Source: Patescibacteria group bacterium (GTDB lineage: Bacteria; Patescibacteriota; Microgenomatia; UBA1400; PJMF01). From it: a DNA stretch of 64,000 nt. Positions within the stretch are counted from its first letter, which is position 1, and each line of letters opens with the position of its first letter. The translations under genes and the position numbers were made by a program. Positions 36,873-63,253 of this stretch are shown here, piece after piece. The stretch lies in the NCBI GenBank assembly GCA_039934415.1, contig JBDTME010000007.1, positions 3,955 through 67,954 of the forward strand, read 5' to 3'. The notes under the pieces are model-generated. The model was given only the letters and a program-made list of their open reading frames with translations. It searched no databases and was not told where the DNA came from.

Positions 36873-37277
36873 CTAGACGTCTTCCTGATAATGCTTCCCG
36901 AGAAGGTGGTAGATACTGTGATCAATGTAGTAATTGATCAACTCATCAACGAGTTTATTTTTTTTGGCTGCTTCTTGAATTAAGACTGGATAACACAATA
37001 CGATATCACCGTAATGAGGGACAGCACCTTCTGGATTAGGAAAAGTTTTCCCTTCAGTTGGGTCGCGCTGCGTGAATGATAAGACATTTGTAGGGCCATC
37101 TTTTTCTCGTAACTTATTCAACTCTTTCATCTTCCGCTTCCCTACAATCGAGATATCAACCCAAGCCGAATTTATATGATGTTTATGAAAAGAATCCACT
37201 GCAGTTTTCCGCACCGCTTTTCGATCCACGATAAACCGCGAACCTACTGAAATATTGACTACAAAATTTTTTGACAT
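36873..37277 (-). CDS. ybeY: Endoribonuclease YbeY (rRNA maturation factor)
   Basis: C-terminal IDHSIYHLLGKHYQED matches the YbeY H..H....H zinc motif (HGxLHLLGYDH). The ORF-track N-terminal 16 aa translate the upstream terminator hairpin, so the start is moved to ATG 37277 (MSKNFVVNISVG). Confidence 0.7.
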   Translation of the reverse strand: MSKNFVVNISVGSRFIVDRKAVRKTAVDSFHKHHINSAWVDISIVGKRKMKELNKLREKDGPTNVLSFTQRDPTEGKTFPNPEGAVPHYGDIVLCYPVLIQEAAKKNKLVDELINYYIDHSIYHLLGKHYQEDV

Positions 37278-37311
37278 AATAAATGAGAACTTTATTTTAC
37301 ACCTAAAACCC

Positions 37312-37345
37312 AAAAACCCCGACATACATCGGGGCTTTTATTTTT
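37312..37345. terminator. Intrinsic terminator between rpsU and ybeY
   Basis: ccccga-cataca-tcgggg: a 6-bp GC-rich stem with T-runs on both flanks, so it is usable in both orientations. Confidence 0.6.
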
Positions 37346-37532
37346 TATACACTGCTTATTGAACATCTAAGATCAAGGTTTTATTCACAACCCCACTCTT
37401 CTATTTAGTGAATATTTAGAACTGAGAGATTATTTATAAAATGCTCAATCAAACATGTAACGTGCTGCAATCGAACGTAGTGAAGATTGCGGAACATTTT
37501 AAATAATCTTGAAGGATTAAATATTCATGCAA

Positions 37533-38761: not shown

Positions 38762-39157
38762 TTACTGACAGACACCACCATTATTCAACACCAGTTGATC
38801 TTCTGTTAAGAAAGTTCTATCCACTTCTTTTTCATCCAAAAAGGCTTTGAAATCGTCCATCACAACATTCAATTCCCCACAATAATCTATTTGAATCTTA
38901 TTTATTTTATAGTTAAAGCTAACTGTGGCAGAAGATAATTGGGCAGGTAAATGGGGTCTAACAGCTGTTTCGATACTTAGAGTTAAAGCACCTGTCGGAG
39001 TGGGCTCTGCAATTGCACCCGTACTTTCATTAGACTCAACCTGGGATTGAATTTGACTGAATCTTTTATTCCGTTGAACTTGGGTATAGAGAGCAAGAAC
39101 GGAAATAGCAGTAATAGATATTATGGTGATTACAATGATGACTTTCATTTTTTTCAT
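38762..39157 (-). CDS. Hypothetical small membrane-anchored protein
   Basis: 131 aa with an N-terminal TM (VIIVITIISITAISVLALY) and two Cys in the C-terminal domain. Directly downstream of the large Cys-rich protein. Confidence 0.45.
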   Translation of the reverse strand: MKKMKVIIVITIISITAISVLALYTQVQRNKRFSQIQSQVESNESTGAIAEPTPTGALTLSIETAVRPHLPAQLSSATVSFNYKINKIQIDYCGELNVVMDDFKAFLDEKEVDRTFLTEDQLVLNNGGVCQ

Positions 39158-39163
39158 TTTCGA

Positions 39164-41323
39164 TTAAATTTGATCTGGCATTTGAACAACTGCTACATTT
39201 TCAATAACGAGATCGCGTCCCCATTGGCTAAAATTAATAGTTTCAACTTGCCCTGTTTTATTCACTAATCTATCTTGACCGAAAAATGGATCAACACCTG
39301 TAAAATTGCCTTTTTCATCAACACCGTCAATCATTACATAATGTTCAGTTCTGTGCTCAGTACCATCTCGATCTCTGTTGACTACCACAACTAACGCGAA
39401 CAATACATTGCCTTGTTCTATCGTTTTCTTCATAACTGCCTCATTCTCGGGAGCAAGATTGTTCACACTCTGAAAGAGTGTATCAGCCACTAACTCACCT
39501 TGATTGTTTTGCTTGCTAAATAACCACTCTGTTTCAAGACCAACTGTATTATTCAATGTGTCTACTAATGGAGTCATGTGCATTCCATGCCCCTGAAATC
39601 CTGAATCAGCTACTATTTTCTCTAAATCACAGTTTTTCCCAGCTTGTTGACAAATATTGTAAAGTGTTACAAGGCCACATCCGTTGGACTGCAAGTCAAT
39701 AAATTGTGTTTGTAAAACCTGTGAAGATCTCACATCTCCTAAAACTGGAACCGGTACTTGAATCTTTAAAGGATCTTCACCACCACAACTCTTATTATTG
39801 CAACTTCCTGTCCCAGTACTGCAAGGTCCAACATCAGAACCACCATCTTTACACCAATACTTCATTCTCGAACTATCTAAACAACCTGCAACTGCATTGA
39901 TTCCCCCATTACTACTACAAACACCTTGTGCATCAACAATCAATTTGCTGACATTATTAGTACTTGAACTAATCGCAGCTGTTGGTTTGGCACTTGGGAT
40001 AGGAGTTGGCGAACTGAATCTCAAAGAAGTAGTAGGCGTAGGTTGAGGTGGTAAAACTCCAACTAATGGATCCTGTCCTCCACATGTATTGCCACGACAC
40101 GTTCCTGCTCCCGTACTACACTTCTCAGTGTCATAAGTATTTGCATCTGTACACCAGTACTTCATAGTAGAAGTGTTGATACAACCTGCAACAGATTTAA
40201 TGCCACTATTAGCTTCACAAACACCTTCAAGTTGAGATGCTTTAGGAGTTGGCAAAACGTTACCGGCTATAACTTGAGTTGGTAAAAGTTTTGGCGTCGC
40301 TGTTGGTAAATTTCCAGACAAAGGATCTACACCATCACACTTACTATTCCTGCATGTTCCTGCGCCTGTACTGCACGTCTCAACGTCATACCCACCATCA
40401 TTACACCAATACTTCATGTCAGAAGTATTTAGACAACCAGCTATCGACTTGATTCCTTTTTGTGCGGCACAAACTCCAGACAGTTGTAGAGTTTGTTGAG
40501 AAGTAACTACACTGCTCCGAGATGGCAAGCTCGTTGGAGTAACTCCTGTTGAAATAAGAGTTGGCGTTGCTTGAACCGCCTTTTGAACTTGAGCGACATT
40601 ATTTTTGGGGGTTGAAGTGGGAGCTGTTGCACAGCGACTGCTATAGGAACTTGAATAAGTCCCCGCACTATTGATACAAACATACAAGATATCACCACGA
40701 CATACTTCACTCCCTGGAATGCATGATCCACTAGGAGGATTCGTTCGTGCAAAATCAGAAATTTGAGTTAATTTTGGATCAATTGTTGATTGAGGAGAAG
40801 GAGAACAACTATTTCCGCTACATCCATTTGGACATCTATAGCTTGAATACGTGCCAGCACTATTGGTGCAAGTGTACAGGATACTCGCAGAACACGAAGT
40901 ACTACCGGGAATACATGAACCGCTTGGACCTCCAACAGCGATAGAAGTTGGAAGCGGTCTCAGACTTGTTGCCGGAGCACATTTACCATTTACACACCCA
41001 TTTGAGCACGCAAAACTTGAGTACGCGCCAGCACTATTGGTACAGGTGTATTGGATAGTACCTAAACATGAAGTGCTACCTGGTATACAGGTTCCACTTG
41101 GAAAATTCTCGGTTGACTTAACAACGGTGGGAACTGCTGATAATCCTGTTGGGGAAATAGCAATAACTGTTGCATACGGATCAAAAAATGCTCTTTCTCG
41201 AACATCCTGACTTTGTTTCAATACAGTTAGTGATAACAGAGCAACTAGCCCCATTCCTAACAATACAAACACCGGAACAAAAACTTTAGATTGGGAGAGT
41301 AGTAAAGTATATTTTTTTGGCAT
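39164..41323 (-). CDS. Membrane-anchored Cys-rich repeat protein with C-terminal papain-fold (C39-like) peptidase domain
   Basis: N-terminal signal-anchor, then 3 copies of an about 45-aa module (GSCIPGSTSC...ILYTCTNSAGTYSS.C.NGC) and 3 copies of an about 55-aa module (GVC...GIKS(I/V)AGC(L/I)NTS.MKYWC.D....D...CSTGAGTCR...C.G.DPL). The C-terminal domain has a catalytic-like Cys (SNGCGLVTLYNI), His (TEHYVMIDGVDEKGN) and DP (VDPFFG), consistent with peptidase C39-like. The ORF track starts at GTG 41359; the ATG at 41323 (MPKKYTLLL...) is preferred. Confidence 0.6.
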   Translation of the reverse strand: MPKKYTLLLSQSKVFVPVFVLLGMGLVALLSLTVLKQSQDVRERAFFDPYATVIAISPTGLSAVPTVVKSTENFPSGTCIPGSTSCLGTIQYTCTNSAGAYSSFACSNGCVNGKCAPATSLRPLPTSIAVGGPSGSCIPGSTSCSASILYTCTNSAGTYSSYRCPNGCSGNSCSPSPQSTIDPKLTQISDFARTNPPSGSCIPGSEVCRGDILYVCINSAGTYSSSYSSRCATAPTSTPKNNVAQVQKAVQATPTLISTGVTPTSLPSRSSVVTSQQTLQLSGVCAAQKGIKSIAGCLNTSDMKYWCNDGGYDVETCSTGAGTCRNSKCDGVDPLSGNLPTATPKLLPTQVIAGNVLPTPKASQLEGVCEANSGIKSVAGCINTSTMKYWCTDANTYDTEKCSTGAGTCRGNTCGGQDPLVGVLPPQPTPTTSLRFSSPTPIPSAKPTAAISSSTNNVSKLIVDAQGVCSSNGGINAVAGCLDSSRMKYWCKDGGSDVGPCSTGTGSCNNKSCGGEDPLKIQVPVPVLGDVRSSQVLQTQFIDLQSNGCGLVTLYNICQQAGKNCDLEKIVADSGFQGHGMHMTPLVDTLNNTVGLETEWLFSKQNNQGELVADTLFQSVNNLAPENEAVMKKTIEQGNVLFALVVVVNRDRDGTEHRTEHYVMIDGVDEKGNFTGVDPFFGQDRLVNKTGQVETINFSQWGRDLVIENVAVVQMPDQI

Positions 41324-41690
41324 GAAACGCGATGTAGCATTCAGTATAACTTCAGACACTAAAATTACTCAATAGGTAATTTTCAGCAAATTCTAGCGCG
41401 TAAAAAAACAGAACTCACCCCAATTTTTTACCGATAAATCGGTTTTTTTTGGAGTGAGCTTCTCACCGGGAACAAATGCGAGTATACCCTCGCTGCTCCC
41501 CGTTTTAAATGACAAAAAAAGACCGTTGAATCAATTTATAATTTTCCCAATCAAGCAAAGGTTTATATTTATAAGTCTAGCAAAACGACTCTTTTTGTAA
41601 AATGTATTGATTTTATCTTTCAATTCTTACAAGAAAATGAAATCTAGAAAAGTAAATAAGAAAAGTTGCTCAAAAAGAAAAAGCACTCAG

Positions 41691-42005
41691 TTATTTTTTT
41701 CCAAAAATAAGTCTGAAAATAGCCATAAGTATTCTTACTGGCAATAAGACAATCCATTCAACCCAGTTGCGATCTTCTTCTCCTCTCACCCACACCGATA
41801 ACACCAACCAATCTTTTTTATTTTCCAATAATTTCGCAACGACTTGATGATTCCGTCCATTAATTTCTCGAATAAATTTGACAGTATCTCTTTTTTTAGC
41901 AGGAAAAGACCGGTCAGGATTACTCAGTGTTCTTTCAATATCAGACCGAGACAAATGCCGTTGATTCATCCGGTCTTGAGCATGGTTAGTGAAAATGATC
42001 GACAT
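41691..42005 (-). CDS. DUF4258-like protein (toxin-like small protein), orphan
   Basis: MSIIFTNHAQDRMNQRHLSRSDIERTLSNP... matches the HAxxRMxxRxIS pattern that I recall for DUF4258. No adjacent antitoxin-sized ORF was found on either side. Confidence 0.5.
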   Translation of the reverse strand: MSIIFTNHAQDRMNQRHLSRSDIERTLSNPDRSFPAKKRDTVKFIREINGRNHQVVAKLLENKKDWLVLSVWVRGEEDRNWVEWIVLLPVRILMAIFRLIFGKK

Positions 42006-42010
42006 AGAAA

Positions 42011-43717
42011 TTACTTTAGACGCTTCATCACCTCTTCTAATTCAATGACCTCACTGTTTTCCTCGTTTCTCTTTTTCCATTCCAATTTCTCACCATTTCG
42101 AGGTGAAGCAACTAAACGCACAGGAATACCAATCAAATCAGCATCAGCAAATTTATTTCCCGCTGATGTATCTCTATCATCCCACAATACTTCAACACCC
42201 TCTTTCTCAAATTGCTGATACACCTTTTCGGCAAACTCCTCAGCACCTTTCATTGAAACCAAGTGAACCTGAAACGGTGCAATCTGAGCAGGCCAAACCA
42301 TACCTTTGTCGTCGCCAAATTTCTCAGCAATAACACCCATTACTCGACTCGTTCCAATGCCATATGAACCCATGAAAATAGGTTGTTGTTGACCTTTTTC
42401 ATCTACAAATTGGTAGTTGAACGCCTTAGTAAACTTCACTCCCAAAGGGAAAATATTGCCAACTTCAGCAGCCTTAAATACCTCATACTCTTCACTATTT
42501 TCTGGGAACCGATCACCTTGTCGTGCGATTTTAATATCAAAAAACTCTTTAGGTTCCGGTATATCTCGACCAAAATTAATATTAATTGAATGATAGTCAG
42601 TCTTATTAGCACCACATTCAAAGTTTTTGCGACCACTCATCGACTCGTCCATGAAGATTCGAACAGAATCAGGCAAATTTAAAATACCTGCATAACCAAC
42701 TTCAGCGCTAGTCACTTTTTTTACGACTTCCGCTCGAGCTAAAGTCAATTTAGAAACGCCTGCTACTTTACACAACTTCTCTTCATTAATTTCGTAATCA
42801 CCCCGAACAGCTGCAGCAATGACGTCACCCTTATCAGTCTCAAATAAAATTGTTTTGGTCGTTTTATCTATTGAGATTTTTAAATACTCGGCCAGCTGGG
42901 CAACTCCAATAATCCCCTTACCTATTATATCTTCGCGCTCTTTTATCTCTTCAGAGCTATCGTCTATGGTTGGAGCCAGACTTGGAGCAATCTCACGATT
43001 GAATGCCAAATTTTTACTTTTGACATAAAAAACCGTATCCTCGCCTGCTTCGCAACGCGCTTGAAACTCATGAGAAAAATCTTTGGTGAAGTCACCACCA
43101 GAAGCTAGGACAACCATTGTAAACTCACCCAATCCAAGACGTTCAAAAGTTTTGGTGTAAGCATCTTTCGCAACTTCATAGTACTTTTTCAAATCCTCTT
43201 CGCTTGTATGAAAACTGTATAAATCTTTCATTCGAAATTCTCGACAACGCAGTAAACCTGACTTTGCGCGAGGTTCATTGCGAAATTTACTCTGGATTTG
43301 ATACACCGCAAATGGAAAATCTTTATATGATCCATTAAATTTTTGTGCCAAAGGCGTAACGACGTCTTCATGAGTGCAGTTGAGAATATACTCTGCATCA
43401 TTTTTGGCTCTAGCTACTTCATTCGCCGGCACCGTCTTCATTAACACATCAACAGTTTCCAATCGACCAGTCGTTTCCCACAATAATTTTGGCACGATCG
43501 AAGGCATTAGCACTTCCTGGCCAATCTTATCCATCTCTTCTCGAACAATGTCTTCAATTTTATGTAAAACGCGCAATCCTAACGGCAAAAAGGTATACAC
43601 CCCAGCCATAGTTTGATCAATAAAACCAGCTTGGATGAGCAAACGAGCGTTTTTTGATTTGATGTCACCAACATTTTTGTTTGTTTTAGTAAACATTTTC
43701 GAATACTTCATATACAT
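42011..43717 (-). CDS. proS: Proline--tRNA ligase (bacterial type with INS editing domain)
   Basis: 568 aa with class II motifs (FRNEPRAKSGLLRCREFRMKDLYSF motif 2; GSYGIGTSRVM motif 3) and a C-terminal anticodon-binding domain. Confidence 0.9.
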   Translation of the reverse strand: MYMKYSKMFTKTNKNVGDIKSKNARLLIQAGFIDQTMAGVYTFLPLGLRVLHKIEDIVREEMDKIGQEVLMPSIVPKLLWETTGRLETVDVLMKTVPANEVARAKNDAEYILNCTHEDVVTPLAQKFNGSYKDFPFAVYQIQSKFRNEPRAKSGLLRCREFRMKDLYSFHTSEEDLKKYYEVAKDAYTKTFERLGLGEFTMVVLASGGDFTKDFSHEFQARCEAGEDTVFYVKSKNLAFNREIAPSLAPTIDDSSEEIKEREDIIGKGIIGVAQLAEYLKISIDKTTKTILFETDKGDVIAAAVRGDYEINEEKLCKVAGVSKLTLARAEVVKKVTSAEVGYAGILNLPDSVRIFMDESMSGRKNFECGANKTDYHSININFGRDIPEPKEFFDIKIARQGDRFPENSEEYEVFKAAEVGNIFPLGVKFTKAFNYQFVDEKGQQQPIFMGSYGIGTSRVMGVIAEKFGDDKGMVWPAQIAPFQVHLVSMKGAEEFAEKVYQQFEKEGVEVLWDDRDTSAGNKFADADLIGIPVRLVASPRNGEKLEWKKRNEENSEVIELEEVMKRLK

Positions 43718-43720
43718 CTT

Positions 43721-44040
43721 TCTTTTCTTTGATTAATAATAACAGGTACAACAAAAAAAACCTCGTCTTCATCCACTACTCCGAAAACGGACTAATGAAC
43801 AAGGACGAGGTTTGCTCGTGGTACCACCTTGGTTTGTCTCAACGTCGCCGCTGAGATCTTTTCAACTGTCTTTGATATTCAACAACAGTGTAGCGTTTGA
43901 TGACCGGTGCTGGCGGAATGTGTTAGTACTGTGATGTCCACATCGGCTCTCGATTTTATCGATCAAGGGTTAGGAGCCCTTGCAAAGAAACTAAGTTCTT
44001 TGAAGCTATTCAATGAATATTGTACACCAAAAAATCACTT
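43721..44040 (-). promoter_or_regulatory. T-box riboswitch leader (tRNA-Pro-responsive) controlling proS
   Basis: Minus-strand RNA contains CAAGG-UGGUACC-ACGAG-CAAAC-CUCGU-CCUUG (plus 43800-43831): two 5-bp helices flanking the 7-nt T-box bulge UGGNACC (consensus AAUUAGGGUGGNACCGCG). Its 3' half overlaps a terminator, AACCUCGUC...GACGAGGUU followed by U8 (plus 43753-43812). Upstream there is a GAGAG element and a CCU-A candidate specifier. Confidence 0.75.
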
Positions 44041-55246: not shown

Positions 55247-56539
55247 TTAGCAAGACTTCAGAAACTTCCTTACAAGTAACGAGTAATCAGTCAGATCAAC
55301 AAGACCATCACGGTTGATATCCGCACGTGGATTTATTGGTACTGATTTCAAAAAGTCGGTGATTAATAATGAGTAATCTGTGAGGTCCACGACATGATCA
55401 CTGTTGATGTCTTCATTGCAGCTCGTCACTGGAGTCGGCGCAGGCGAAACGCTAACTGAAGACCCTAAGTGTTTTGTCAGAATTGCCATTTGAGGAGCAT
55501 CATAGAATTTTGACTGTGCATCACAAAAAGGACCGATGCTACTGATGTCTCCATAAGGACCACCTGACCAGTAAGCACCAGAGATTTTGTTCTGATCAAG
55601 ATATGTCAGAAAGTTATCGAGAACGGTCAACCATCTTGGATCTTTATTCATCCCACCATCATATAAACACGTCTGTGTCCCCATCTTCCATCCAGCAGGC
55701 ACACCATACTCTCCTGCAAAACACTTCACATTGTTCGACACACACCAGTTTACAAAATCTTTAGCGTTATCCACTCCAATGTTGAGATTTGCATTGGGCA
55801 CATCAAAGCCATTAGGATATTGACCGTTGGGTGGCGTATCAAAATAGAAATGGGCTTCATAGATAAGATTGTTGGCGGGATCAGACATCGGTAATCCGGC
55901 TAAATGATACTTAAAGTAGTGACCATAGCCACCAGTAGAAGTAGGAACCAAAATAGGATGTGTCATGTCTACTGTCCGAATTGCTGCAATCGCAGAAGGC
56001 GCGATCGTGGTATTCCAGGTATCTCCCATATTTGGCTCGTTGATCAGATCATATCCCCACAAAGCAGCATCATCTTTGTAATGTGCAGCCAATTTCTTCC
56101 ACATATCGTTAAACGCAGCTTGCGGCACTGCAGAAGTCGCCACATTATTCCCTTTATACAAGCCAGGTAGCGGGACAAAAGCGATCTTCAATCCTCGACT
56201 GCGAGCACTCGCCATTAATGCATCCATTTGAGCCAAGTAAGTTGGATCAAGTGGACCATTCAAAGTTGGTTGCAAAAATTTCCAGGAAAAACCAGCTCGG
56301 AAATGCGTAAAGCCTTTGGTTTTAAAATACTCCATCATCGCTGGAGTCGCAAAAGCATTCGTACCGCCAAACTCACCTTGCCAACCACCAAACAAGTTTA
56401 GTCCTCTCACATATTCTTGATTTGTTGATGGGATAGAAGTGGGTGTTGGTGTAAGGGCTTGTGTTTTAACTGGCTGAACAATCAACAGCAAAAACAACAG
56501 CGATGTCAAAATAAGAAAAGTTGGAAAATGTCGGGACAT
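55247..56539 (-). CDS. Secreted glycoside hydrolase family 5 enzyme with C-terminal type-I dockerin
   Basis: Signal peptide (MSRHFPTFLILTSLLFLLLIVQPVKTQA). GH5 acid/base in GYDLINEPN, EAHFY, and the nucleophile motif AGEYG. The C-terminal tandem Ca-binding repeats DINSDHVVDLTDYSLLITDFLK and DINRDGLVDLTDYSLLVRKFLK are the dockerin. The start is set to the ATG after a TATAAT box; the ORF track starts at 56578. Confidence 0.75.
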   Translation of the reverse strand: MSRHFPTFLILTSLLFLLLIVQPVKTQALTPTPTSIPSTNQEYVRGLNLFGGWQGEFGGTNAFATPAMMEYFKTKGFTHFRAGFSWKFLQPTLNGPLDPTYLAQMDALMASARSRGLKIAFVPLPGLYKGNNVATSAVPQAAFNDMWKKLAAHYKDDAALWGYDLINEPNMGDTWNTTIAPSAIAAIRTVDMTHPILVPTSTGGYGHYFKYHLAGLPMSDPANNLIYEAHFYFDTPPNGQYPNGFDVPNANLNIGVDNAKDFVNWCVSNNVKCFAGEYGVPAGWKMGTQTCLYDGGMNKDPRWLTVLDNFLTYLDQNKISGAYWSGGPYGDISSIGPFCDAQSKFYDAPQMAILTKHLGSSVSVSPAPTPVTSCNEDINSDHVVDLTDYSLLITDFLKSVPINPRADINRDGLVDLTDYSLLVRKFLKSC

Positions 56540-56604
56540 TGGATTGTACTCAATTATACTACGCTCAGTATAGAACAATTAGGAAAAAATATGAGTAAGC
56601 AAGT

Positions 56605-57730: not shown

Positions 57731-58246
57731 CTATCTGAGCACGACTATTTTTCTTTGCACTTTGAAGTATTCAGTCAGCGTCACTATAAACATCGTGAGA
57801 CTCAAAACAGCGCTAAACATACAATAGAGACAAATCGCATGGATGACAGCGAGTTGAAGATAGACCAAGTATAGAGACATGAGGACTGCCGAACTCGTTG
57901 CAGCAGCTTGTCCATAAAATAACAATTTTTCTATTGTTAAGGCTCGTGGACGCGCGTATCTCTCTACGATCTTCCATAACACTTCTTTAAATGTCAGCTC
58001 TTTTTCAACAAAAAGTCGAACTAAACTTAACCCGAGCATACTACTGTAAAAAGCCAATCCTAAAACAGATAATGGTAGTTCACCAACCATCGCATACTTA
58101 CTCTTCAATACTTTTCCGCAATCCACCCAGATGGAATTACTACAAGGTGGAACGGCATTGGAATAATGTTCGTAGGTCAAAAAACTGGCGTCGAGAATGC
58201 CCAACGAAGAAATGATTAGAATGGCTATGATGAAATAACGTCTCAT
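57731..58246 (-). CDS. Vitamin K epoxide reductase (VKOR)-family membrane protein
   Basis: The loop Cys pair (PPCSNSIWVDCGKVLKSKYA), the active-site CxxC in a TM helix (AICLYCMFSA), and 4-5 TM helices. Confidence 0.7.
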   Translation of the reverse strand: MRRYFIIAILIISSLGILDASFLTYEHYSNAVPPCSNSIWVDCGKVLKSKYAMVGELPLSVLGLAFYSSMLGLSLVRLFVEKELTFKEVLWKIVERYARPRALTIEKLLFYGQAAATSSAVLMSLYLVYLQLAVIHAICLYCMFSAVLSLTMFIVTLTEYFKVQRKIVVLR

Positions 58247-62185: not shown

Positions 62186-63253
62186 CTATTCCTTCATCTG
62201 CAGCCAATAATCGGGTACTTTCGACCAACTATCTGAAAGCTTATCTAGCGTTACCACACCTGTTTTAATATCGATACGATACTGATATTCATAAACCAGC
62301 TGACTCGCATTTGAATTCGCGACTAAGATTGTACCGAATTTTTTCTTTGGCTTCCCATCAACACCGAGATTCTTCTTGGCGTCAGTAGCAAGACTATCGA
62401 TCCGCGTCTCCAATACAATCCCGACATGTCCGTACTGATTTTTAGCAGCAGTGGTACTCCAAACTAGTAAATCACCTTCTACTGGAAGCTGTGTTGCTTG
62501 TCCGCTTTGAAATTTTTTGAATTGGCCAGTTGGGCCTGTGTATTTCGCTGCTAATAAATCTGCCGCATTTGTTCTGCCTTGTTTAATTATTGGTTTTCCA
62601 GCCAGCTCATAACTCATAAAAACAAATGTTACACATTGTAGATAATCATTTATTATCCGGTGTTGAAAAAAATCTGAATGTGGCATCCATGTAACAGATT
62701 TCTGATAGATTATCTGCGCTTTGGTTGGGATGTAAGAATCTCGTGGATCGTCACATTGAAATTGAGAATATAAATGATTTGGACCAATTTTGAGCATGCC
62801 AATTAACAACTGAGCTGCAGAACTTTTTGAATAGTTTTTAGCAGAATTATGAACACCATCACACCCATCAGTACTGGATTCTTGGAACTCGTTGGAAAAA
62901 TCGGGCACTTCATTCTCTGTTAGAGCATCCAAAGAAGTGTCCTCGTTTGTCTGCCAAGTCATTCTTTCCTGAGTAATTTTAGTACTCTGATTTTCGACAC
63001 TATTATTGCGAACAGTTTTATCTCTTTCTATCAAATTTTTTGTTGATTTTTGATCATTTTCTGACCCATTTTGAGTACTTCCCTTTGGGACCTTCAACGG
63101 TTCGATTGTGGTAGATGGATTTGGTAACGAGTGGACACTATAGTCGCTGAAAGGATCTAGTTCTTCACTGCCGATGGCACGAACTACACACTGCTGCATG
63201 CATACAAAGACCGAAACAATAAAAATAGTGAAAATGATTCTAAAACTCCTCAC
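62186..63253 (-). CDS. Secreted CHAP-domain protein (putative peptidoglycan amidase/peptidase)
   Basis: Signal peptide (MRSFRIIFTIFIVSVFVCMQQCVVRA), a low-complexity linker, and a C-terminal CHAP domain with the Cys motif (INDYLQCVTFVFMSY) and His motif (NQYGHVGIVLETR). Confidence 0.65.
   Translation of the reverse strand: MRSFRIIFTIFIVSVFVCMQQCVVRAIGSEELDPFSDYSVHSLPNPSTTIEPLKVPKGSTQNGSENDQKSTKNLIERDKTVRNNSVENQSTKITQERMTWQTNEDTSLDALTENEVPDFSNEFQESSTDGCDGVHNSAKNYSKSSAAQLLIGMLKIGPNHLYSQFQCDDPRDSYIPTKAQIIYQKSVTWMPHSDFFQHRIINDYLQCVTFVFMSYELAGKPIIKQGRTNAADLLAAKYTGPTGQFKKFQSGQATQLPVEGDLLVWSTTAAKNQYGHVGIVLETRIDSLATDAKKNLGVDGKPKKKFGTILVANSNASQLVYEYQYRIDIKTGVVTLDKLSDSWSKVPDYWLQMKE

Follow-up and report, generated by a model that had tools for sequence, protein, structure and literature searches.

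A two-gene operon of a Patescibacteria (CPR) group bacterium with a tiny genome probably encodes a cysteine peptidase that is displayed at the cell surface on a long stalk and acts on extracellular targets, together with a cognate membrane-tethered partner. The operon lies on the minus strand of the window, by which we mean the whole 64-kb stretch of DNA that was analysed. A sequence-only reading of this DNA had proposed one large and one small open reading frame, and both exist; their products are called p731 and p131.

Architecture and predicted export of p731

The two genes and the membrane-proximal features of p731 are:

39164..41359, minus strand: p731 gene, 731 aa, GTG start
38762..39157, minus strand: p131 gene, 131 aa, ATG start
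41219..41284, minus strand: single N-terminal transmembrane (TM) helix of p731 from hydropathy, aa 26-47, VFVPVFVLLGMGLVALLSLTVL; homologous helix in P0002 and P0003
41174..41215, minus strand: juxtamembrane motif QSQDVRERAFFDPY, p731 aa 49-62, conserved in the homologue alignment

The NCBI model of the p731 gene starts at Met13 (41323) and gives a protein of 719 aa (MEO8582035.1). An Rfam scan of the surrounding 8.5 kb yielded no match in the 330 nt that precede the gene, and in a promoter/terminator scan the promoter predictions were no better than shuffled controls. From its N-terminus, p731 consists of the TM helix, three copies of a Cys-rich module A, three copies of a second module B and a C-terminal domain of 187 aa. 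Ser/Thr/Pro-rich linkers between the modules total ~220 residues.

The family is very small: three proteins from two organisms (p731, P0002 and P0003) were found among 1.84 billion cluster representatives. P0002 and P0003 are encoded on one syntenic metagenome contig. Word-indexed homology searches with full-length p731, its C-terminal domain or the C-terminal alignment returned only p731 itself or nothing. Scans of the genome contig collection found no relative, and nothing in the phage and plasmid collections matched.

The membrane anchor that had been claimed for p731 corresponds to one hydrophobic helix. Lys residues lie just N-terminal to it, and it is predicted to be a signal anchor with the N-terminus inside and the C-terminus outside. 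In the adjoining motif, seven positions (Q49, Q51, R56, A57, D60, P61 and Y62) do not vary among the three homologues.

The cysteines are consistent with this topology. The three homologues contain 37, 27 and 25 Cys. In each, the catalytic Cys adds one to module sets with even numbers; P0003 has another two Cys ahead of the TM helix. The number of exported Cys is thus even plus one in every homologue, the odd one being the predicted nucleophile. Since all other exported Cys can be paired, Cys561 would be the sole free thiol. C570 and C577 occur together or not at all across the homologues, and a VKOR gene is present in the window (57731-58246, E=8e-28). From the single TM helix, the Cys parity, the C570/C577 pair and the VKOR gene we infer an extracytoplasmic location of p731.

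The modules were located as follows:

40976..41098, minus strand: module A copy 1, aa 88-128, 6 Cys
40802..40924, minus strand: module A copy 2, aa 146-186, 6 Cys
40628..40732, minus strand: module A copy 3, truncated, aa 210-244, 4 Cys
40325..40480, minus strand: module B copy 1, aa 294-345, 6 Cys, core MKYWCNDGG
40070..40228, minus strand: module B copy 2, aa 378-430, 6 Cys
39773..39928, minus strand: module B copy 3, aa 478-529, 6 Cys

All six copies that had been proposed from the sequence were thus recovered, and the six Cys of the module B copies are aligned. Pairwise identities were 59-64% for module A and 49-66% for module B, and tblastn of copy against copy gave E values of 1e-9 to 1e-23, far beyond chance; no further copies were found by tblastn elsewhere in the window. 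The repeats are also real at the DNA level, but looser than the '160-bp near-repeats' described earlier (42-137 nt shared, 67-79% identity). Their start-to-start spacing is 174-192 nt in module A and 252-300 nt in module B, and Tandem Repeats Finder did not call them.

Neither module had been assigned to a nameable family, which agrees with our searches: Pfam gave chance-level matches only (best EGF_CA, E=0.41, and PSI_integrin, E=0.052), as did profile searches against PDB sequences. We rejected the likeness of 'MKYWCNDG' to C-type lysozyme as meaningful (E=0.11 over 17 residues). A single-sequence AF2 model of whole p731 had a pLDDT of 36.7 and was unusable for module folds. With 35-55 residues, 4-6 regularly spaced Cys and a tandem arrangement between low-complexity linkers of an exported protein, the modules resemble those of the EGF-like, PSI and knottin types; they differ in that their similarity to the Pfam profiles is at chance level. 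On the basis of the architecture, they may form the adhesin or lectin-like stalk that the sequence-only reading had suggested.

The C-terminal C39-like domain

The C-terminal domain and its candidate functional residues are:

39167..39727, minus strand: C-terminal domain of p731, aa 545-731, predicted cysteine peptidase, papain-fold and C39-like
39710..39712, minus strand: Gln550, candidate oxyanion-hole residue, invariant, in a low-confidence part of the AF2 model
39677..39679, minus strand: Cys561, predicted nucleophile (NGCG), first residue of the central helix, predicted sole unpaired Cys
39629..39652, minus strand: Cys570-Cys577, probable disulfide, the two Cys occur in p731 and P0002, neither in P0003
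39341..39343, minus strand: His673, predicted general base (HYVMIDG), invariant, in a beta-strand
39290..39292, minus strand: Asp690, predicted third triad residue (GVDP), invariant

The best Pfam match of p731 is Peptidase_C39_2 (PF13529; e.g. PDB 3erv of Bacillus anthracis), which aligns over nearly the whole profile (E=6e-4; aa 555-691, profile positions 10-142 of 143). Its score of 20.8 bits falls short of the gathering threshold of 24 bits, and P0002 and P0003, searched on their own against Pfam, gave no C39 match at E<=1. We therefore regard the domain as a divergent relative and not as a formal member of this family. Peptidase_C39 (PF03412) matched aa 557-611 only (E=0.014), at 15.7 bits against a gathering threshold of 22 bits.

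The Cys/His/DP pattern noticed earlier was found in Cys561, His673 and Asp690. GCG, HYV and DP are motifs typical of C39 and C39_2. The three residues and Gln550 are invariant in all three family members, a sample of three sequences; in P0002 and P0003 they are kept at 24-36% overall identity.

An AF2 model of the domain, built from the three-sequence alignment, was of moderate confidence (pTM 0.62, core pLDDT 70-76), and its first 32 residues, Gln550 among them, are unreliable. The central helix begins exactly at Cys561, and strand 140-152 (domain numbering) contains His673. This placement, with the nucleophile heading the central helix and the His within a strand, is that of the papain-like fold (MEROPS clan CA), an alpha+beta fold in which the His strand is part of the C-terminal sheet. 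The best Foldseek matches in the PDB were papain/C39-like proteins, none with a significant E-value, and sequence and profile searches of the domain against the PDB returned chance matches only (a camel antibody and an aryldialkylphosphatase). With the sub-threshold match to a papain-fold family, Cys and His (as well as Gln and Asp) conserved in both homologues and modules without a match among known repeat families, the proposal of a C39/papain-like peptidase is supported; a transglutaminase or acyltransferase is less likely.

Like C39_2, the p731 domain has Cys, His and Asp in this order with a Gln upstream, and it is an independent papain-fold domain that bears structural decorations and is not part of a transporter (PMC10318531). 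Unlike C39_2, it terminates a chain of six novel Cys-rich modules that is anchored in the membrane, and it is accompanied by a conserved small TM partner. Peptidase C39 (PCAT1, ComA, LahT, LagD) agrees with the p731 domain in its catalytic residues and in their order. However, the C39 domain of PCAT/AMS proteins is cytoplasmic, N-terminal and fused to an ABC transporter, whereas that of p731 is C-terminal on a single-TM protein in which Pfam found no ABC domain, is predicted to be extracellular and has no transporter attached.

The small partner p131

The ATG of p131 lies 6 nt past the p731 stop codon. Two features were recognized in its product:

39086-39145, minus strand: p131 TM helix, aa 5-24, N-terminal, single
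38765-39028, minus strand: p131 domain of ~88 aa, following a Pro/Thr linker, with a Cys93/Cys130 pair

On the syntenic metagenome contig the gene order is P0002-s142-P0003-s143, that is, two tandem pairs of a peptidase and a small TM protein. A small TM protein directly follows the peptidase in all three pairs, so the 'partner or immunity factor' suggested earlier is upheld as half of a conserved gene pair that occurs twice in the relative. p131 is 46% identical to s142 (E=1e-28); s142 and s143 are related at E=0.008 and have the same architecture. Across the small proteins, the Cys pair is likewise present or absent as a pair.

The peptidases of the two organisms share 28-34% identity (best full-length BLASTP segments), compared with 45-89% for the syntenic flanking genes; the peptidases have diverged faster than most of their neighbours. 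Co-divergence of enzyme and partner is suggestive, with three pairs only.

p131 probably acts as an inhibitor of the p731 peptidase; alternatively, it may serve as a substrate, in assembly or in docking. It matched no inhibitor family in Pfam, NCBIfam, PADLOC or PHROGs, and the latter two gave nothing significant overall. Assignment of p131 as a pilin or a PepSY-type propeptide was rejected (Pfam E=0.03-0.2, no class III signal motif).

Three known complexes are among the fold matches of the p731 domain: staphopain/staphostatin (1pxv), a peptidase-inhibitor pair; the C39 toxin StbD-CT with its immunity protein StbI (8ssm; bioRxiv 10.64898/2026.05.07.723447); and a T6SS C39-like effector-immunity complex (9jdd). 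In each, the gene of a papain-fold peptidase is directly followed by a small gene, as in p731/p131. The product of that small gene binds and blocks the enzyme, an activity that is proposed for p131 by analogy. The tandem duplication and divergence of the peptidase/small-protein pair also recall polymorphic toxin-immunity pairs, which often behave in this way. In contrast, the known inhibitors are soluble and cytoplasmic or periplasmic, whereas p131 is membrane-anchored with an external domain and resembles none of them in sequence. The toxin pairs further differ in their delivery: no T6SS, CDI, LXG/T7SS or Rhs delivery or trafficking domain was found with Pfam, NCBIfam or PADLOC.

Possible targets and roles

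In the explanation that we favour, p731 would insert into the membrane via its signal-anchor helix, leaving the N-terminus inside and the remainder outside. The six small modules of the exported chain, each probably held by 2-3 disulfides, would form a stalk and probably also serve as binding modules, with the papain-fold C39-like domain at the far end. Catalysis is predicted to use Cys561 as nucleophile, His673 as base, Asp690 to orient the His and, likely, Gln550 in the oxyanion hole. The domain would most likely cut peptide or isopeptide bonds in extracellular targets, for which surface proteins or cell-wall peptides of a neighbour, a host or the producer cell are candidates. p131, with the same topology and diverging in step with the enzyme, would most likely bind the peptidase domain as an inhibitor or immunity factor and so shield the producer's own envelope.

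We consider it rather unlikely that p731 is specifically a peptidoglycan-remodelling or lytic endopeptidase that cuts stem peptides or cross-links of its own growing wall or of a host wall, with modules that bind the wall and a partner that serves as regulator or inhibitor of the enzyme. This reading narrows the favoured explanation and does not contradict it. The organism makes peptidoglycan, as a PBP transpeptidase and GlmS are encoded in the window. Among the viral-library fold matches of the domain are a morphogenesis/wall-hydrolase protein of the phi29 type and a multidomain phage 'lysozyme' protein. Phage endolysin and lysin surveys are among the papers that mention 'Peptidase_C39_2' or PF13529. 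In addition, a metagenome scan found one locus, L004, that has a single module-A-like motif in common with p731, the sole one detected outside the family. It is carried by a Peptidase_M15-like protein (family matches below Pfam cut-offs) that is probably a cell-wall peptidase. However, the best sequence matches of the p731 domain are to C39_2 and C39, and no match to NlpC/P60, CHAP or amidase families was found. Pfam also detected none of the known wall-binding domains LysM, SH3b and PG_binding in p731, and a separate CHAP-domain protein is already encoded in the window.

A very unlikely reading is a dedicated maturation protease, which, in the manner of ABC-exporter C39 domains, would trim leaders on the external side of the membrane; its substrate would be a peptide secreted by the same cell or one of that cell's surface proteins, perhaps p131. 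The closest sequence and fold relatives of the domain are indeed the double-glycine leader peptidases PCAT1, ComA and LahT150, and the enzyme always adjoins a small exported protein. Against this, no ABC/PCAT transporter occurs among the large ORFs of the window, and in a further difference from Peptidase C39 no double-glycine substrate was found near p731: the sole match of a regular-expression search over the window lies antisense within the YchF gene and was rejected. The partners have no conserved Gly-Gly site in common, and a stalk of ~500 residues would be odd for substrates that emerge at the membrane.

In silent C39-like domains such as that of HlyB, the catalytic Cys has been lost. 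It is highly improbable that p731 is likewise a silent binding domain, or a transglutaminase/acyltransferase that would cross-link or modify surface molecules, or a glycosidase: none of its four residues Cys, His, Asp and Gln varies in the family, the GCG, HYV and DP motifs are as in C39/C39_2, and no transglutaminase or acyltransferase family in Pfam matched even at E<=1, although some papain-fold proteins are not peptidases and glycosidase activity is reported for a C39-like archaeal protein (PMC13642728).

The proposed surface-displayed peptidase with its cognate partner may be relevant to the lifestyle of the organism. Patescibacteria that have been cultivated are attached to other microbes, and the molecules by which they recognize and exploit their hosts are described as little known (bioRxiv 10.1101/2024.11.25.624915). 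A bolder version, which we hold to be quite improbable, is that the operon encodes a contact weapon or host-interaction device of episymbiotic Patescibacteria. Two undescribed lectin-like modules on a disulfide stalk would then recognize the host bacterium, the C39-like peptidase would cut host envelope proteins or cell-wall peptides, a co-evolving membrane-tethered immunity protein would protect the producer, and rapid shuffling of the modules, along with tandem duplication, would keep pace with host range.

If p731 is an ordinary envelope-maintenance protease, its interest would be limited to a lineage-specific architecture. If our reading of a surface-displayed peptidase is true, the domain catalogue would gain modules A and B as two new small disulfide-rich types, and the range of C39-like peptidases would widen from leader-peptide processing in the cytoplasm to a membrane-anchored place outside the cell. 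A surface-tethered peptidase on a modular, fast-evolving stalk, together with its probable inhibitor, would be a testable candidate for the interface between Patescibacteria and their hosts.

The gene pair and its cysteine-rich modules

We examined two adjacent genes, encoding the large protein p731 and its small transmembrane (TM) partner p131, with 6 nt between the stop codon of the former and the ATG of the latter.

ORFs and parts of p731
39164–41359, minus strand: p731, 731 aa
38762–39157, minus strand: p131, 131 aa
p731 aa 88–128, 146–186, 210–244: module A, 59–64% identity between copies; 6, 6 and 4 Cys, third copy truncated
p731 aa 294–345, 378–430, 478–529: module B, 49–66% identity between copies; 6 Cys each, all aligned
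p731 linkers: ~223 residues in all, 20–49% Ser/Thr/Pro
p731 aa 545–731: C-terminal domain; 3 Cys (Cys561, 570, 577)

p731 has a single hydrophobic helix (aa 26–47) preceded by lysines. Both ORFs, the TM helix and the Cys-rich repeats described in the sequence-only reading were recovered, with three copies of each module. In the NCBI gene model p731 starts at Met13 and has 719 aa (MEO8582035.1, 'hypothetical protein ABI425_05695, Patescibacteria group bacterium').

By tblastn the module copies matched one another (E=1e-9 to 1e-23) but no other part of the window. The near-repeats reported earlier at DNA level exist, but their size of 160 bp was a loose figure: they are 42–137 nt long (67–79% identity), spaced by 174–192 nt in module A and 252–300 nt in module B, and are missed by Tandem Repeats Finder because they are too diverged and interrupted. 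Searched alone against Pfam, the modules gave chance-level matches only (EGF_CA E=0.41, PSI_integrin E=0.052); profiles from all available copies found no match among PDB sequences, and an AF2 model of whole p731 was unusable, yielding no fold for module A or B. As the sequence-only reading had held, the modules appear to belong to no known family.

Somewhat more widespread is the motif Y-x-C-x-N ... C-x-x-G-C-x-x-x-x-C, which makes up the second half of module A. It is present in the repeats of P0004, a partial MAG protein (E=1e-5), and one similar copy lies in a high-GC metagenome protein (L004, 860–2362, plus strand) with a Peptidase_M15-like domain (E=1.5e-4). The motif thus seems to be an extracellular module that is mobile; L004 suggests that it moves from one extracellular enzyme to another across unrelated bacteria. 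The module B core MKYWCNDGG.D...C (40325–40480, 40070–40228 and 39773–39928, minus strand) resembles the C-type lysozyme loop S(R/K)YWCNDGKT...C. We rejected kinship with these lysozymes, as the PDB profile match (E=0.11, 17 residues) was not significant and probably due to chance.

The C-terminal domain

Pfam searches with the C-terminal domain gave Peptidase_C39_2 (E=6e-4, 20.8 bits against a cut-off of 24; profile positions 10–142 of 143) and Peptidase_C39 (E=0.014). A template-free AF2 model from a three-sequence alignment reached a pTM of 0.62 and a core pLDDT of 70–76. Cys561 forms the exact start of its central helix, His673 lies in a beta-strand and Asp690 comes after the next one. The fold neighbours, with their figures, were the PCAT1 C39 domain (10.3), the pseudomurein endoisopeptidase PeiR (10.3), Interpain A (9.9), the ComA peptidase domain (9.4), the HlyB C39-like domain (9.3), LahT150 (9.3), a C39-type CdiA toxin (8ssm; 9.0) and the 'Putative C39-like peptidase' 3erv (8.9). 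Foldseek returned the same kinds of protein with non-significant E-values. Gln550, Cys561, His673 and Asp690 are unchanged in P0002 and P0003, the sole two homologues (24–36% identical to the p731 domain), neither of which matched PF13529 or PF03412 on its own.

Pfam match, modelled papain fold and invariant residues together bear out the C39/papain-like peptidase domain proposed from sequence alone; we regard it as a predicted papain-fold, C39-like domain, a divergent relative of PF13529 and PF03412 below the curated thresholds. The catalytic fold is already known. What is new is its position at the C-terminus of a membrane-anchored, presumably extracellular, multi-module protein, together with two undescribed Cys-rich modules, a conserved membrane-tethered partner and the extreme rarity of the family.

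Relatives and genomic setting

Scanned exhaustively with HMMER, 1.84 billion cluster representatives yielded four proteins, all singleton clusters: the query, P0002, P0003 and the module-only P0004. P0002 and P0003 are encoded on one 12.7-kb contig (L001, SRR21621035), P0002 also on a 4-kb contig (SRR21621038). L001 and the window are syntenic; the genes on L001 run in the order ProRS, a 187-aa gene, DUF4258, a PIN/RHH toxin-antitoxin pair with, near the peptidase genes, an S26 signal peptidase gene (both pair and S26 gene on the opposite strand), a TM and CARDB protein, P0002, the small TM protein s142, P0003, the small TM protein s143, a DHH-like gene and S21.

The genes around the p731/p131 pair are housekeeping ones: DnaX, a YbeY-like ORF (labelled by eye, without a Pfam scan), ribosomal protein S21, a DHH-like protein, a DUF4258 protein and ProRS. 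Identity between window and L001 is 89% for S21, 78% for the DHH-like protein and 66% for DUF4258, against 28–34% for the peptidases (best full-length BLASTP segments). Their module content also differs, in a comparison of three members.

Modules ahead of the C39-like domain, and cysteines
p731: A x3, B x3; 37 Cys, 36 in even-numbered groups (6+6+4, 6+6+6, C570/C577 pair) plus Cys561
P0002: extra N-terminal 4-Cys module, A x1, B x1, 'CxCK...CC' module; 27 Cys, 26 in even-numbered groups plus the homologous catalytic Cys
P0003: N-terminal module, A x2, 'CxCK' module; 25 Cys, 2 ahead of the TM helix, 22 in even-numbered groups plus the catalytic Cys

Given this divergence and differing module content, the locus is an island that changes fast and shuffles its modules while keeping its place in the chromosome.

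Several neighbouring features were recorded. ProRS (42011–43717, minus strand; L001 2029–3705) is only 45% identical and may have been replaced or be evolving unusually fast. Upstream of it, 43798–43975 (minus strand) matches the T-box leader model end to end (RF00230, 33.7 bits, E=1.2e-4), far under the gathering score of 93. The DUF4258 protein (41691–42005, minus strand; Pfam E=1.5e-9), whose gene adjoins the peptidase locus in the relative too, has a weak match to the barnase/EndoU/RelE-like nuclease family PBECR3 (E=0.002) and a hydrophobic C-terminal tail, with no obvious antitoxin gene beside it in the window. The CARDB protein of L001 (6361–7068, plus strand; 235 aa, TM-anchored, Pro/Thr-rich linker, CARDB E=6e-5) is encoded immediately 5' of the first peptidase gene, where the window shows no counterpart but a 330-nt non-coding gap (41360–41690). 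Between the S21 and YbeY-like genes, 37277–37371 (minus strand) holds a strong terminator-like hairpin with a 13-bp stem; the hairpin itself is most likely why several unrelated Rfam families match weakly here (rimP leader, 34.3 bits, and others). Other exported enzymes in the window are a TM-anchored CHAP-domain protein (62186–63253, minus strand; E=1e-7) and a GH5 cellulase (55247–56578, minus strand; E=4e-34) bearing a type I dockerin (E=3e-7), which, in a Patescibacteria genome, hints at attachment to another organism's cohesin scaffold.

Topology, partner and proposed role

The cysteine totals are informative: apart from the catalytic Cys of each protein and the 2 ahead of the TM helix in P0003, all fall in even-numbered groups. 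p731 and P0002 have C570 as well as C577, and P0003 has neither; likewise, p131 and s142 carry both of the partner's cysteines and s143 carries none. Such all-or-none pairing is what disulfides predict, and we infer that the p731 domains lie outside the cell and are disulfide-bonded. In bacteria without DsbB, VKOR is known to serve for disulfide formation outside the cytoplasm. The window encodes a VKOR-family membrane protein (57731–58246, minus strand; Pfam E=8e-28), suggesting that this small-genome bacterium can form extracytoplasmic disulfides, a point that bears on a 37-Cys protein.

Right after the TM helix stands the motif Q-x-[SP]-Q-[DN]-[VI]-x-x-R-A-x-x-D-P-Y (41174–41215, minus strand; P0002 aa 48–62, P0003 aa 56–70), with 7 positions invariant in all three homologues and unalignable linkers next to it. 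Possible functions for it are sorting, processing or docking.

Next after each of its peptidase genes, the relative carries a ~140-aa gene with the layout of p131: N-terminal TM helix, Pro/Thr linker and ~85-aa domain. p131 and s142 share 46% identity (E=1e-28), and s143 is distantly similar to s142 (E=0.008). This makes the pairing a conserved one, duplicated together with the enzyme, and upholds the earlier suggestion of a partner; the immunity role proposed with it is argued by analogy. Searches of Pfam, NCBIfam, PADLOC, PHROGs and PDB gave no match to the partner. Among the fold neighbours, staphopain is encoded or solved with its cognate inhibitor staphostatin, the C39 toxin StbD-CT has the inhibitor StbI (bioRxiv 10.64898/2026.05.07.723447) and a T6SS C39-like effector has an immunity protein. 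By this likeness we take p131 for a putative cognate inhibitor or immunity protein, presumably at the external face of the membrane because the enzyme would be located there.

We favour, with moderate confidence, a type II-anchored surface protein whose long, disulfide-stabilised and possibly glycan- or protein-binding stalk would end in a C39-like peptidase with a single free thiol, cleaving extracellular peptide bonds and restrained by the membrane-tethered partner. A peptidoglycan endopeptidase would be a narrower form of this reading, with support from the fold matches to PeiR and phage wall hydrolases and with the link of module A to M15. A dedicated maturation protease fits less well, as no PCAT transporter turned up among the window's large ORFs and a regex search of the window gave no credible double-glycine substrate. 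A non-hydrolase or silent domain is unlikely with the catalytic residues intact, although a C39-like glycosidase has been reported (PMC13642728). Read as a surface peptidase with its restraining partner, the p731/p131 pair would give the study of cell-surface biology in this Patescibacteria lineage a concrete candidate that can be tested.
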